Shown here: positions 2,496 to 11,779 of the stretch, in pieces
Position numbering within the stretch: position 1 is the first letter of the stretch
Layout: each line of letters opens with the position of its first letter
From: a virus
Reading direction: 5' to 3' (one strand)
IMG/VR virus record: IMGVR_UViG_3300048564_000035
Coordinates: 1 to 64,000 of that record
DNA: 64,000 bases
The notes under the pieces: model-generated
Databases searched by the model: none
What the model saw: the letters and a program-made list of their open reading frames with translations, nothing else
What the model was told of the DNA's origin: nothing
Program-made: the position numbers and the translations under genes

Positions 2496-3101
2496 ATGAA
2501 ACTAAAAATTGAAATAAAAAACAGATTTACCGGCAAAGTATTATTTGAACTGGAAACAGAAGATAATAGCATCAAGAAAACCCTTATTGAAGCGGTTAGG
2601 CAGGGCGCAGACTTGCAGGGCGCAGACTTGCGGGGCGCATACTTGCAGGGCGCATACTTGCGGGGCGCATACTTGCAGGGCGCAGACTTGCGGGGCGCAT
2701 ACTTGCAGGGCGCATACTTGCAGGGCGCAGACTTGCAGGGCGCAGACTTGCGGGGCGCATACTTGCAGGGCGCAGACTTGCGGGGCGCATACTTGCAGGG
2801 CGCATACTTGCAGGGCGCAGACTTGCAGGGCTATAAAATAAAAGCAGCAGCAGCATTCACCGGACTATATACATACGTAGTCATTCCTTATATTACTGAA
2901 GAAAATGGTAAGAGAGTTAAAATGGGATGCTATGACCGGACATTGGAAGAATGGGAGGGTGATTTCTGGAACAATACAAGCGAATTTCCAAATGACGGAT
3001 CGTTGAAAAGTAATTGTAGGTTAATGGCTTTTGAAGCTGCAAAAAAGTGGTTGGAGCTTGCCGAGAACAACATTAATAAAAATGAAACTAAAGAATCATG
3101 A
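2496..3101 (+). CDS. pentapeptide-repeat protein with a unique C-terminal domain of about 90 aa
   Basis: 15 consecutive GA(D/Y)L(Q/R) pentapeptides match the A(D/N)LXX pentapeptide-repeat signature. Unique N- and C-terminal segments flank the repeats. Confidence 0.85.
   Translation: MKLKIEIKNRFTGKVLFELETEDNSIKKTLIEAVRQGADLQGADLRGAYLQGAYLRGAYLQGADLRGAYLQGAYLQGADLQGADLRGAYLQGADLRGAYLQGAYLQGADLQGYKIKAAAAFTGLYTYVVIPYITEENGKRVKMGCYDRTLEEWEGDFWNNTSEFPNDGSLKSNCRLMAFEAAKKWLELAENNINKNETKES
2604..2831 (+). repeat. 15 tandem copies of a 15-bp unit ggcgca(g/t)acttgc(a/g)g
   Basis: Read directly from the sequence. Units differ only at position 7 (g/t) and position 14 (a/g). Confidence 0.95.
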
Positions 3102-7048: not shown

Positions 7049-7282
7049 ATGAAAATAACAAAAACTTACAATTGGAACAGAAGGGATTTCTGTTATGATG
7101 CCACTTGCGAACATTGCGGCCACGAAGAAAATAATAATTATGGATATGATGATTCAAACTATTATAACAATGTAGTGCCTGACATGAAATGTGAGAAATG
7201 CGGGGAAAGCACTAATTCAAAAGAGTCGGATGCTCCGAAAACAGTAGTAATCCCAAAATATAATCCGAACCAAGTTATTTAA
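7049..7282 (+). CDS. zinc-ribbon-like small protein (77 aa)
   Basis: Two CxxC pairs: CEHC and CEKC. Confidence 0.6.
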   Translation: MKITKTYNWNRRDFCYDATCEHCGHEENNNYGYDDSNYYNNVVPDMKCEKCGESTNSKESDAPKTVVIPKYNPNQVI

Positions 7283-7299
7283 TATTAGTTTTCATAACA

Positions 7300-7321
7300 G
7301 GTACAATCCGTACCATTTTTT
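7300..7321 (+). terminator. rho-independent terminator
   Basis: GGTAC (7300-7304) pairs with GTACC (7310-7314), followed by aTTTTTT. Confidence 0.5.
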
Positions 7322-7330
7322 AGAGTGGTT

Positions 7331-7358
7331 ACTCCCGGCTGATTACCGGGAGTTTTTT
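7331..7358 (+). terminator. rho-independent terminator, second of a tandem pair closing the early block
   Basis: ACTCCCGG (7331-7338) pairs with CCGGGAGT (7346-7353), followed by a T-run to 7358. Confidence 0.7.
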
Positions 7359-7539
7359 AAAAAAAATATCATCGTTTACGGGAAACCGTAAAAAAATGTC
7401 AAAACAGGTTACTATCTTAGCAACATTAAAAATAAAGGCAATTATACCCATTTACACGCAGAGGGGAAAATCTGTAATAATATAATCTTTTGACCTACTC
7501 CAAAGGTCTTAAATTCTATCACTTTTAGGCAAAATGAGC

Positions 7540-8355
7540 CTACCCTTCTTTTACCATTGTATTAACTGTATCAAAAGCAGTTTGAATTTTTTTAGCAAAA
7601 TCCTCACATTCTAATTTTAGTTCGGAGCTTTTTTGCTTTAAACCCTTAGATTGTTTTTTTGTCTTCGTTGAAGACTTCAATGAATAATAAATGAAATGAC
7701 CTGTAGGTAACAAAACACTCAAACCTAAATTAAACCAAGAAAAATCATACTGGCAATTAATAGCGGGAAACCATTTTTGTAAATAAAAAAAGACCGGATA
7801 AACAAGAAAAATACAAATTGGAAATACGATTAAAACTTTATTATATGAGGGGGCAATTTTTTTAAAGAAGTTAGATTTCTTATCCTTAAATATCCATATT
7901 AATATCAAAATGGATAGAATATTAAAAAGCCCAAATAATTCTCTATTTATTGGTTCTGAGAAATCAAGCTCAAAACCATTCAAAAGAAGGATTAAGATAC
8001 AATATAAAGCACCGAATAAACAGAGATAATTAAAGTTTTCGGAAATAGAGTTTTGCTGAATGGAGTGCTCTAATTCTGTATGTAAAGAAGATATATTTTT
8101 CTGAATTGCTTCGTTTTCATCGTTCAATTTCCTAACAACTGCTTCAGCATTCCCAATACCATTACACTTGTCGCCTTCAGCAATTAATCTTTCTATATTA
8201 TTGCTTTGAATACTACTTATTAGTTTTAGCTCTTTCTCTATATAGACAAAATGGTTATTAACCTTTCGTATCAAAGATTCGATAAAGTGATTCGATACAA
8301 TATATGCCGAATTGAGAGCTGCAAAGAACTCAAAGAAGTGGCCGAAGTGCTCCAA
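7540..8355 (-). CDS. membrane protein (271 aa): N-terminal coiled-coil region, about 4 TM helices, basic/coiled C-terminal tail
   Basis: ORF track. The first codon is TTG, 5 nt after the stop of 8361-8927, and the ORF has no internal ATG until near its end. Hydrophobic stretches include YLCLFGALYCILILLL, LFGLFNILSILILIWIF, VLIVFPICIFLVYPVFFYL and FNLGLSVLLPTGHFIYY. Confidence 0.7.
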   Translation of the reverse strand: MEHFGHFFEFFAALNSAYIVSNHFIESLIRKVNNHFVYIEKELKLISSIQSNNIERLIAEGDKCNGIGNAEAVVRKLNDENEAIQKNISSLHTELEHSIQQNSISENFNYLCLFGALYCILILLLNGFELDFSEPINRELFGLFNILSILILIWIFKDKKSNFFKKIAPSYNKVLIVFPICIFLVYPVFFYLQKWFPAINCQYDFSWFNLGLSVLLPTGHFIYYSLKSSTKTKKQSKGLKQKSSELKLECEDFAKKIQTAFDTVNTMVKEG

Positions 8356-8360
8356 AATGT

Positions 8361-8927
8361 CTATTTTTTTAAGATAAGGTGGACAGGTTCTGACTTAGTT
8401 ATATCATTAAATATGTCGTCGAAAATTAAAGACAGATTTTTAGATGCCTCTGCATCATTAAAATTACCAAATGCGGTAAAAGATTTCGTATCATCCTCTA
8501 CTCTGTACATTTTGCCATCGGCGACAGTAAAATGTATTTCATGCAATTGGTTTTTTTCTTTTTCCTCTCCCGCTCTAAACAGCTTATTTGAATGCTTTTT
8601 GACTTCCACATTCTTTGGATTTATAATAGAATAAAATCTAAGAATATCAAATATTTTTGGCTCTTCTGTTCTGCTTTCAAATTTTTCTTTTTCGAGCAAT
8701 ACTTTTATTTTACCCCCTCTGCTAAGAAAGTTTTCAAGCCCATTTCTATATTCTTCTTTTGAAGATATTTCTCCAGAGAAGTTTCCTGCAAAAACTCTTA
8801 TAGTATCTTTTGCGGTTGCGAAAATAGTAGCCATTACCAGTGCTGCATGATCTGGCCCTGAATTATAAAACACGACACTCTTCCCTTGCTTTGCAAGATC
8901 TTTTATATATTCTCTGTATTGGTTCAT
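8361..8927 (-). CDS. Nuc/phospholipase-D-superfamily-like protein with a non-canonical HxT motif (188 aa)
   Basis: ATG at 8927; the track start at 8951 is TTG. Two stretches align by eye with the single-domain PLD nuclease Nuc. The first is HAALVMATIFATAKDTIRVFAGNF...LSRGGKIKVLLEKE. The second is HEIHFTVADGKMYRVE...TAFGNFNDAEASKN, corresponding to the ...SIR...RGV.VK.V.D and HxK..D...GSxN..A regions. Thr replaces the catalytic Lys. Confidence 0.6.
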   Translation of the reverse strand: MNQYREYIKDLAKQGKSVVFYNSGPDHAALVMATIFATAKDTIRVFAGNFSGEISSKEEYRNGLENFLSRGGKIKVLLEKEKFESRTEEPKIFDILRFYSIINPKNVEVKKHSNKLFRAGEEKEKNQLHEIHFTVADGKMYRVEDDTKSFTAFGNFNDAEASKNLSLIFDDIFNDITKSEPVHLILKK

Positions 8928-9223
8928 AGTAATTATGTTGGATAAGGTCAAAGGTTTTTAAACATCATGGCTCTCATAAGATAATCAGTATTTGGAAGTG
9001 TTTGAAAGGGGAATGGAGGCATTTACAAGCATTTGACAAAATTATAAACTTTTTATCCACACCTGCTAATGAATATAAAGGTATGAAGGAAGCCTCCGTA
9101 AAAAAAGTTATAGTTTTCAACGATTTGTGCATAAGTCATACTTGATTATTAATTAGTTATAAAAAAAACTACGTCTAAATACGTATAGTAAAATTACTAT
9201 TTCATGGGAGCTTTTCAGGAATG

Positions 9224-9238
9224 AATTTGTATTACAAT
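9224..9238 (+). repeat. 15-bp box AATTTGTATTACAAT, copy 1, upstream of the RHH gene
   Basis: Exact repeat of 9436-9450. It ends 26 nt before ATG 9265. Confidence 0.8.
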
Positions 9239-9264
9239 GAAATACTTTGTATATTACATAAGCA

Positions 9265-9423
9265 ATGAAACAAGATAATAAATCTGAAACGATTATTCTA
9301 AGGGTAGAGCCTGAATTAAAGGCTGATCTTCAAAAAATGGCAGACGTAGATAGCCGTAAACTGGCTGATTATATTAGAGTTCAGCTTAGAAAGATGGTTG
9401 ACCTTTCTAAAAAGAAAAAGTAA
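9265..9423 (+). CDS. ribbon-helix-helix (CopG/Arc-like) DNA-binding protein (52 aa)
   Basis: Below the ORF-track cut-off. The sequence IILRVEPELKADLQKMADVDSRKLADYIRVQLRKMV fits a beta-strand/helix/helix RHH pattern. Confidence 0.55.
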   Translation: MKQDNKSETIILRVEPELKADLQKMADVDSRKLADYIRVQLRKMVDLSKKKK

Positions 9424-9435
9424 TTTTTTTTGACC

Positions 9436-9462
9436 AATTTGTATTACAATTGAATACAAATT
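9436..9462 (+). repeat. 15-bp box copy 2, embedded in an inverted repeat AATTTGTATT-7nt-AATACAAATT
   Basis: The box is at 9436-9450 and ends 27 nt before the transposase ATG at 9478. The 10-bp arms at 9436-9445 and 9453-9462 are perfectly complementary. Confidence 0.8.
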
Positions 9463-9477
9463 AATAAACTGAATAAA

Positions 9478-10452
9478 ATGGATTTCAATTTCAAAACAGA
9501 AGATGAATTTAATGAGTTTTTTCATAGCGAAAGGGCTTGTTACGAGTTTTATGAAAAAGAAAGATGGGAAAATGGTACGCCTGTTTGCCCTCATTGTGGT
9601 TCTGTGAAATATTATAATGTAACACCCAGGGGAAAGTTTAAAGATATTCCGTCATACAGGTGCGGTATCAGGGAATGTGGTTTGCCATTTACCGTAAGAA
9701 CAAAGACAATTTTTGAAGGTAGCAAGGTTACGTTTAAAAAATGGCTAAAGGCAATCTATGAAATAAGCATCCGCAAAAAAAGCATTTCTTCAATTGAACT
9801 TTCAAAGAGAATTGGAGTTAGTCAAAAAACCGGATGGTACATTAACCACAGGCTCCGTGAAATGCTGACAGATACCAGTCCTGAGTTATTAAGGGACTAC
9901 GCAGCGATTGACGAAACGCTTGTGGGTGCTAAATCCCGGAATAAACACAGGTATAAAAGAATACCCAATTCGCAAGGACGTGCAGCAAATTCAGGGAAAG
10001 CAATTGTAATGGGGGCAATAGGATTGCGTGGGCAAGTGAAAACAAAAGTCATCGGTGTAGTGGATAAAGATAATATCCAAAAGTTTGCTAACGATTCAAT
10101 AGAGAAAAAGGCAATTATGGTAACGGACGAGTTAAGAGCCTACAACATTTTAGATAAAGATTACTTTCGTATAACGGTAAATCACTCAGAAGAAAATTAC
10201 GTGAATGGAGCTTTTTCGACCAATGGTATTGAGAATTATTGGAGCCACTTTAAAAGGACAATTATCGGTACGCATCATGTTGTCAGTCCTCAGCATTTGC
10301 AAAAGTATTCGGACGAGTGCAGCTTTAGGTACAACCGGAAGGATATAACCCCCGCTCAGGTGTTTAATGCTATGGTAAAAAATGCTGAGCGGGAAAGAAC
10401 GACCTACTCAGTATTGACAACTGAGTGGAAAAAGCTATTTCCCGAAGATTAG
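9478..10452 (+). CDS. IS1595-family (ISXO2-like DDE) transposase with N-terminal zinc ribbon
   Basis: CPHCGS...YRCGIRECG forms a zinc ribbon. An HTH segment is SISSIELSKRIGVSQKTGW. The DDE-type motifs are AIDETLVGAK, MVTDELRAY and NGIENYWSHFKR. Confidence 0.85.
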   Translation: MDFNFKTEDEFNEFFHSERACYEFYEKERWENGTPVCPHCGSVKYYNVTPRGKFKDIPSYRCGIRECGLPFTVRTKTIFEGSKVTFKKWLKAIYEISIRKKSISSIELSKRIGVSQKTGWYINHRLREMLTDTSPELLRDYAAIDETLVGAKSRNKHRYKRIPNSQGRAANSGKAIVMGAIGLRGQVKTKVIGVVDKDNIQKFANDSIEKKAIMVTDELRAYNILDKDYFRITVNHSEENYVNGAFSTNGIENYWSHFKRTIIGTHHVVSPQHLQKYSDECSFRYNRKDITPAQVFNAMVKNAERERTTYSVLTTEWKKLFPED

Positions 10453-11542: not shown

Positions 11543-11779
11543 CTACTCTGATAAGCCTTTTAATAGGTCTGTTATATCAATTTGCAGTCCTTTGCATATA
11601 TCTAGTAGATATAAATAACTTGGGTTAACAGCCCCTTTTTCCAATCGGTTAATAGACTGTCTTTCCTTATCAATTAATTCACCCAGTTTTTCCAATGTAA
11701 ACCCCTTTTGCTCCCTTATGGCTTTTACCCTTTGACCTAAAGCTGTCAGCTTCTTTTGTTGGCTTTTACTTATTGGCAT
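11543..11779 (-). CDS. XRE-family (Cro/CI-type) helix-turn-helix transcriptional regulator (78 aa)
   Basis: LGQRVKAIREQKGFTLEKLGELIDKERQSINRLEKGAVNPSYLYLLDICKGLQIDITDLL is a classic HTH_3 pattern. Confidence 0.85.
   Translation of the reverse strand: MPISKSQQKKLTALGQRVKAIREQKGFTLEKLGELIDKERQSINRLEKGAVNPSYLYLLDICKGLQIDITDLLKGLSE

Follow-up and report, generated by a model that had tools for sequence, protein, structure and literature searches.

In a 64,000-nucleotide stretch of phage DNA (positions 1 to 64,000 of the IMG/VR virus record IMGVR_UViG_3300048564_000035; hereafter "the window," meaning the whole of this stretch), two open reading frames (ORFs) on the minus strand form a cassette, with gene 1 upstream of gene 2. 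The window belongs to a phage, as its terminase, portal, and major head protein were identified. Gene 1 encodes a cytoplasmic protein modeled with a phospholipase D (PLD) fold, and gene 2 encodes a membrane protein with four transmembrane (TM) segments. We found that these genes represent a conserved two-gene unit, whose proteins diverge together across distant loci. We propose that the cassette is a copy of a widespread, horizontally mobile operon, which the phage carries as an accessory pair (a moron). Judging from its context and architecture, the pair would most likely serve to exclude phages or abort infections, with a logic similar to that of lambda RexAB, a reading to which we assign a probability of about 0.4. 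The cassette is composed of the following features:

8361-8927, minus strand: gene 1, cytoplasmic protein of 188 aa with a predicted PLD fold, related to DUF7931 (ORF, AlphaFold2 [AF2], Foldseek, and family search)
8356-8360, minus strand: 5-nucleotide spacer, ACATT, separating the stop codon of gene 1 from the TTG of gene 2
7540-8355, minus strand: gene 2, a 271-aa membrane protein with a TTG start
8928-9264, minus strand: upstream noncoding region of 337 nucleotides, the presumed operon promoter, with no ORF of ≥60 aa
7283-7539, no strand: downstream spacer of 257 nucleotides with two plus-strand terminator-like hairpins and a weak hairpin

A conserved two-gene unit

Using a degenerate DNA pattern of the gene 1 motif, we retrieved at least 120 metagenomic loci and 21 viral loci from IMG/VR; the counts in this paragraph are among the loci listed. 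An adjacent TM partner, defined as an ORF on the same strand that is at least 150 aa long and has two or more TM segments, accompanies 53 of 62 distinct gene 1 clusters (70% identity, at least 900 nucleotides of downstream sequence). The partners have a median length of 282 aa, a first TM segment near residue 116, and a median spacing of 0 nucleotides from gene 1, and 49 of the 53 join the gene 2 hidden Markov model (HMM) family on iteration. Because TM and coiled-coil composition may swell the membership of the iterated HMM, we give the independent adjacency and TM criterion alongside it. In several of the unpaired exceptions, the partner is frameshifted or was passed over by the filter. On viral contigs, the partner is present at 10 of the 11 loci with room downstream; scanning viral sequences with the profile of gene 2 itself returned nothing. 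In loci L001, L002, L004, L010, and L011, close homologues of the two genes lie side by side; in L008, gene 2 is truncated. The initial annotation of this DNA had treated the two genes as one candidate defense or exclusion system, and their co-occurrence does extend beyond this phage, with adjacency in ~85 to 90% of diverse loci. No third gene recurs across the compared loci.

The pairwise identities of gene 1 and gene 2 products are correlated (52 pairs, r = 0.895; Mantel test, r reached in 0 of 999 permutations), and gene 1 evolves more slowly than gene 2 (mean identity of 33% versus 18%). The two proteins presumably interact physically.

The listed ORF of gene 1 spans 8361-8951 and opens with a TTG codon. 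We prefer the 188-aa model from the in-frame ATG at 8927 because its product, which begins MNQYREYIKDLAK (MNQYREYIK...), agrees with the N-termini of homologues; the TTG at 8951 is an unlikely alternative start. Gene 2 has no usable ATG, and, because its only internal methionine is residue 267, it must initiate at TTG. Both this TTG and the motif EHFGHFFEF are kept in all eight close orthologues. The spacers between the two genes in close orthologues are 3, 3, 3, 5, 10, 18, and 43 nucleotides long and unrelated in sequence. Given that the TTG is kept despite such differing spacers, independent initiation at TTG is a conserved feature. The short spacing and the TTG start, which had been read as fitting translational coupling, thus both recur in the orthologues. 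Production of a gene 1-gene 2 fusion by readthrough or frameshifting is ruled out, since spacers of 3, 5, 10, 18, and 43 nucleotides place the genes in different frames. Gene callers treat the TTG-start gene badly: it is uncalled in L004 (2079-2891) and called 27 codons short in the window's record at the Joint Genome Institute (JGI; protein P0009). Protein databases therefore undercount the gene 2 family.

The gene 1 and gene 2 proteins

Structural comparison indicates that gene 1 has a PLD/Nuc fold. Its AF2 model (predicted local distance difference test score [pLDDT] of 84.9, predicted template modeling score of 0.84, eight homologues as input) has 105 Foldseek matches in the PDB at an E value of ≤1e−3, of which the top 50 are all members of the PLD superfamily. 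The matches include a PLD (7e0m, 7.9e−8) and Nuc (1byr, 7.8e−7, target-normalized TM-score of 0.71), as well as NucT, FAM83, the C-domain of TrmB, PLD3, vaccinia F13, and phosphatidylserine synthase. The top matches in the viral structure library BFVD are likewise PLD proteins.

At the sequence level, the resemblance is faint. Gene 1 matches Pfam PLDc_2 with an E value of 0.062 and 13.6 bits, below the cutoff of 27, and 9 of 147 gene 1 relatives match this model at an E value of ≤0.01. Sequence searches of the PDB with gene 1 gave zero matches, and a sequence-level tie to solved PLD structures was rejected; gene 1 also matches nothing in NCBIfam. An hhalign comparison with a Nuc sequence covered only the N-terminal half, in the "SxGxxA...IR..." helix region, with a probability of 6%. 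The initial annotation had aligned gene 1 with Nuc by eye. The likeness holds for the modeled fold and for the HFT and GNFND motifs, which are present, but the sequence similarity to Nuc is not significant.

The gene 1 family is large. A profile search of 1.84 billion representative proteins yielded at least 2,070 clusters (50% identity) at an E value of ≤1e−3 and 983 at ≤1e−10, nearly all of them 165 to 230 aa long. The members of Pfam DUF7931 (PF25559) have the same lengths, and this model is matched by 46 of 147 family representatives at an E value of ≤0.01 (best, 3.8e−8). Neither gene 1 (none at an E value of ≤1) nor its closest relatives match DUF7931 themselves; L015 (32.3 bits) and L016 (28.2 bits), which are linked through gene 1's own profile, exceed the DUF7931 gathering threshold of 27 bits. 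The family has no assigned function, and our literature search on DUF7931 and PF25559 found nothing relevant. The pairing was found neither in PADLOC-DB 2.0 nor in our literature search, but gene 1 is not an orphan, as its large family overlaps DUF7931. The gene 1 family is thus already catalogued, as a domain of unknown function, and the gene 2 family is uncatalogued.

We took conservation values from the profile-search set (A3) and not from the loci retrieved by the DNA pattern, because the pattern itself fixes H, F, D, Y/F, R, E, D/N, A, F, and N. The motifs of gene 1 are NSGPDH (residues 22 to 27), HFT (132 to 134), D137, R142-x-E144, and G-N-F-N (154 to 157), and the family signature is HF[TACS][VI][GA]D..x[YF]RxE.D.....A.[GC][NS]FN. 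Across 147 unbiased representatives, R142 is invariant and N22, H132, D137, E144, A152, F156, and N157 are each conserved at ≥90%. The G-[NS]-F-N element, in which position 155 is N or S, is the counterpart of the PLD GSxN motif. The position of the HxK lysine is T134 in the window. Threonine, alanine, cysteine, or serine occupies it in ~90% of 259 aligned family sequences, lysine is not among its commonest residues, and lysine occurs there in none of ~130 listed motif instances of the family. The replacement of the catalytic lysine by threonine, which had been noticed in the window, is thus real; since a small residue stands at this position family-wide, HxT is a property of the family instead of a mutation particular to this phage. 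Given that the histidine and asparagine persist and that Arg-x-Glu sits on an inserted strand, we suspect that the pocket is functional, binding or cleaving phosphate, and that the protein is not a dead scaffold. The N-terminus of gene 1 is not hydrophobic and carries no signal peptide, as had been stated, and a Pfam search detected no helix-turn-helix (HTH) or ribbon-helix-helix (RHH) domain in the protein. In one protein of the representative search (P0129, 344 aa), a gene 1-type domain (residues 1 to 178) is fused to a C-terminal Mrr_cat restriction endonuclease domain of the PD-(D/E)xK type.

Gene 2 is laid out as a helical hairpin (residues 2 to 102), four TM segments (approximately 110 to 128, 139 to 157, 171 to 193, and 207 to 228, from hydropathy and charge), and a basic C-terminal helix (230 to 270), in keeping with the N-terminal coiled coil, four TM helices, and basic tail described in the initial annotation. 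The loop between TM1 and TM2 is acidic, and the loop between TM2 and TM3 and the tail are basic. By the positive-inside rule, both ends of the protein are cytoplasmic, so the hairpin and the C-terminal helix share one side of the membrane. The most conserved part of gene 2 is the N-terminal 28 residues (2 to 28), a segment that we regard as a candidate docking element. The AF2 model is confident for the hairpin (~30 to 102) and the C-terminal helix (230 to 270) alone. Foldseek returned only generic helical bundles and no solved fold, and Pfam covers neither gene 2 nor any of its 52 diverse relatives. The JGI name of gene 2, CorA, is unsupported, as no CorA match was found in Pfam, NCBIfam, or Foldseek.

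In one IMG/VR phage group, a 236-aa soluble ORF of unknown family takes the place of the four-TM partner (L016, 2336-3046; L018, 4665-5375; L021, 3890-4600), while the upstream PLD-fold gene is still ~95% identical (compare L017, 7034-7948). We considered this alternative partner as a Panacea-type antitoxin and rejected the assignment because it has no Pfam match and is not similar to a neighboring SocA-like ORF.

Mobility and genomic context

DNA similarity between the window and other loci is limited to the cassette, and the flanks are unrelated. The loci that host the pair range from 24 to 64% GC, with the gene 1 family concentrated in uncultured low-GC (24 to 45%) bacteria and phages from many habitats, including the gut. 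The pair occurs in phages and prophages, among them the 21 IMG/VR contigs, and in regions rich in insertion sequences (IS). In L010, it adjoins an integrase and an S24 repressor, and L011 carries a CHAP lysin. We found no homologues in the cultured-phage records of INPHARED or the plasmid records of PLSDB, a single locus in a scan of GTDB genomes, no terminal inverted repeats around the cassette, and no integrase within the window by crude tblastn.

We scanned 149 neighboring ORFs at 37 loci, where IS1595 transposases form the most frequent family. Also present are other DDE transposases, KilA-N proteins, HTH regulators, ParA, TraU, PD-Lambda-5 A and B, PDC-S22, a reverse transcriptase of the retron type, and two restriction-modification enzymes of type IIG. 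The neighborhood bears the signature of accessory, mobile elements, with a defense-island flavor that is suggestive but weak.

In the window, the cassette lies antisense to, and convergent with, a plus-strand early block that terminates at 7282. Terminator-like hairpins at 7300-7314 and 7331-7353 stand just past this block (6 terminator-like sites in the scanned region versus 1.2 expected), and a weak hairpin at 7526-7542 overlaps the stop codon of gene 2. On the other side, positions 8928-9153 of the upstream region are conserved at 74% with locus L074. The location given in the initial annotation, past tandem terminators, between long noncoding spacers (257 and 337 nucleotides), and close to RHH-like and IS1595 genes, is accurate in all its parts. 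The two neighboring genes are as follows:

9265-9423, plus strand: RHH/Arc-like ORF (phrog_22139, 2e−8)
9478-10452, no strand given: IS1595 transposase (Pfam, 1.7e−32; NCBIfam, 1.2e−48)

Neither gene was retained as a part of the system. Homologues of the RHH-like ORF, and of a 206-aa ORF that was also considered, are absent at other loci, and the IS1595 transposases vary in side and orientation and share ~35% mutual identity. Such transposases lie within a few kilobases of the pair in at least nine independent contexts (the window, as above; L001, 4356-5273; L002, 3178-4095; L011, 13199-14218 and 16882-17820; L017, 5692-6714; also L127, L108, L095, and L041). The RHH-like ORF is bracketed by 22-nucleotide direct repeats (9224-9245 and 9436-9457) with the palindrome TTGTATTACAA, which are probably its operators; these repeats have the divergent promoter region of gene 1 on one side and the gene for the IS1595 transposase on the other. 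Near the cassette, positions 11543-11779 on the minus strand encode a 78-aa regulator of the HTH_3 (Cro/CI) type. At other loci, a GIY-YIG-like ORF of ~99 aa, absent from the window, immediately precedes gene 1, in the same orientation, in four distinct clusters (L062, 484-783, and three others), and a leucyl-tRNA synthetase gene next to the pair (L004, 2898-6143) has an inserted endonuclease-like domain (DUF559/MTES_1575).

The cassette is the lowest-GC place within the window, at 31.2% GC against a mean of 37.7% (standard deviation of 2.3% for windows of equal size), or ~2.9 standard deviations below. Its GC content at third codon positions (GC3) is 0.27 to 0.28, and the range of the phage backbone is 0.25 to 0.37. 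Because this GC3 is not unusual, we regard the dip as real but modest. The hand counts behind the earlier description (12/60 and 30/60 G+C) are exact, and a GC scan does find the compositional break, but "far more AT-rich" overstates a difference of 6.5 points. An ORF at 2496-3101 on the plus strand is an outlier in the other direction (46.5% GC and GC3 of 0.505 in a 38% GC phage) and may have been recently acquired.

Possible functions and known counterparts

How might such a pair exclude phages? We hypothesize that the gene 1 protein, as a cytoplasmic PLD-fold sensor, would recognize, and perhaps cut, a nucleic acid or phosphodiester cue that arises in infection. The cytoplasmic helical bundle of gene 2 and its conserved N-terminal segment would dock the gene 1 protein, and the four TM helices would then perturb the membrane. 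The TTG start would hold a potentially toxic membrane partner scarce. Signaling would presumably start at the PLD-fold protein and end at its membrane partner. The fusion to Mrr_cat and the exchange of the TM partner amount to a modularity typical of conflict systems. Extended to the whole family, this proposal would make the pair a large unnamed family of membrane-coupled two-gene immune or exclusion systems, with 2,000 or more protein clusters that come chiefly from uncultured bacteria of low GC and from their phages. In it, the lysine-less PLD fold with Arg-x-Glu would be a nucleic acid-recognizing or catalytic module wired to a new family of four-TM effectors. We advance this extension tentatively, as an idea somewhat short of even odds.

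Several observations weigh against exclusion or abortive infection with a RexAB-like logic. The TM region of gene 2 is modeled poorly (pLDDT of 42 to 65), and gene 2 has no channel-like fold and no conserved polar pore residues. In L004, the pair occupies a plain chromosomal site between a SET-domain gene and leuS. Defense genes occur within 3.5 kb at ~5 of the 37 scanned loci, which is a weak enrichment. The defense library that we searched, PADLOC-DB 2.0 (2023), gave no significant match to either protein (gene 1, best PDC-S05 with an E value of ~0.01; gene 2, none); therefore, no homology ties the pair to defense. The pair accordingly corresponds to no system in that library, in line with the earlier suggestion that it is undescribed. 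The 147 gene 1 relatives have no meaningful PADLOC or NCBIfam match (weak DrmC and MkoC matches), and our literature search on defense systems that combine PLD and TM proteins found nothing relevant to the pairing. Finally, the conserved histidine suggests that gene 1 may be a catalytic effector instead of a sensor.

A rival reading is a defense system of reversed polarity, like Kiwa or Zorya, in which the four-TM protein would sense or anchor (phage DNA entry or envelope stress) and the PLD-fold protein would be a nuclease or phosphodiesterase effector that is released or activated at the membrane. We consider this arrangement unlikely. Both the catalytic-type histidine (≥90%) and the asparagine of GSxN are retained. 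Truly inactive PLD folds, such as FAM83 and TrmB, usually lose the histidine. Among the closest structures are two nucleases, Nuc and NucT, and an exonuclease, PLD3, and gene 1 is the slower-evolving partner. However, the HxK lysine is missing across the gene 1 family, the Mrr_cat fusion puts the gene 1 domain at the position usually held by a sensor or DNA-binding domain, and neither KwaA and KwaB nor the Zor proteins are homologous to the pair.

The pair could also be a toxin-antitoxin or addiction module, in which a membrane toxin would be neutralized by the PLD-fold protein, stabilizing mobile elements with no dedicated anti-phage role. Gene 1 is intact but gene 2 is truncated or frameshifted in L008/L009, L044, and L093, the operon is tight, with the putative neutralizer first and a weak TTG on the membrane protein, and the contexts are mobile and IS-rich. 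Against these points, gene 1 lacks the DNA-binding or autoregulatory domain typical of type II antitoxins, and its constellation of conserved His, Arg, Glu, and Asn would be needless in an antitoxin. We judge such a module to be less probable again, and the line between it and abortive infection is in any case hard to draw.

A role in serving the phage itself, either in lysis timing (holin/antiholin-like) or in counter-defense by degradation of host signaling nucleotides, is improbable. The pair is carried by phages, gene 2 is a small multi-TM membrane protein with a charged C-terminus, and a PLD-type phosphodiesterase could cleave nucleotide signals; but lysis genes are not adjacent in the window, the pair also occurs in nonphage chromosomal and IS contexts, and its transcription opposes the early block from an upstream spacer of its own. 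Least probable is a membrane lipid- or envelope-modifying enzyme, that is, a small PLD-type transferase or hydrolase recruited to the bilayer by its integral membrane partner for surface remodeling or masking of phage receptors: cardiolipin and phosphatidylserine synthases do belong to the PLD superfamily and are among the fold matches (3hsi and 8yr6), but the distribution is patchy and mobile, the lysine is missing, the structures that match best are single-domain nucleases, and no lipid-metabolism genes were found among the scanned neighbors.

If exclusion or abortive infection is indeed the function, the pair adds to defense a widespread family that PADLOC-DB 2.0 (2023) does not detect, and its two proteins would make a small model for studying how a cytoplasmic cue is relayed to the membrane. 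Should the function be another, the pair would still establish what DUF7931 does, and likewise the partner family, for which no model exists. The family also amounts to a natural experiment on the chemistry of a PLD active site in which the lysine is absent.

Among known proteins, Nuc (pKM101) and NucT (Helicobacter pylori) have the same size and alpha/beta fold as gene 1, with the histidine and the G-[NS]-x-N motif in equivalent places. Unlike them, gene 1 has T/A/C/S for the HxK lysine and ~9 extra residues that bear Arg-x-Glu, lacks a signal peptide and a significant profile match, and is obligately paired with a membrane protein. PLD-fold proteins also occur in defense systems, as DrmC of DISARM and MkoB/C of Mokosh, but these keep the full HKD motif and act in multigene helicase/methylase systems; 8 of 147 gene 1 family members match DrmC models weakly (best, 1.2e−4), which is not significant. 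Kiwa, like our pair, has two genes, which encode a four-TM membrane protein (KwaA) and a cytosolic DNA-acting protein (KwaB), but its gene order is reversed and neither KwaA nor KwaB (DUF4868) is homologous to the pair. Lambda RexAB is likewise a phage-borne two-gene operon, in which the gene for a soluble protein precedes that for a four-TM protein, and the expected logic, a cytosolic sensor that gates a membrane effector, is the same. There is no sequence similarity (no PADLOC match to RexA or RexB), gene 2 is ~2 times the size of RexB and has a helical cytoplasmic domain of 110 aa, and RexA is not known to have a PLD fold. The kind of system, a phage-carried soluble sensor with a membrane protein, is known from RexAB and Kiwa, but its parts are new.

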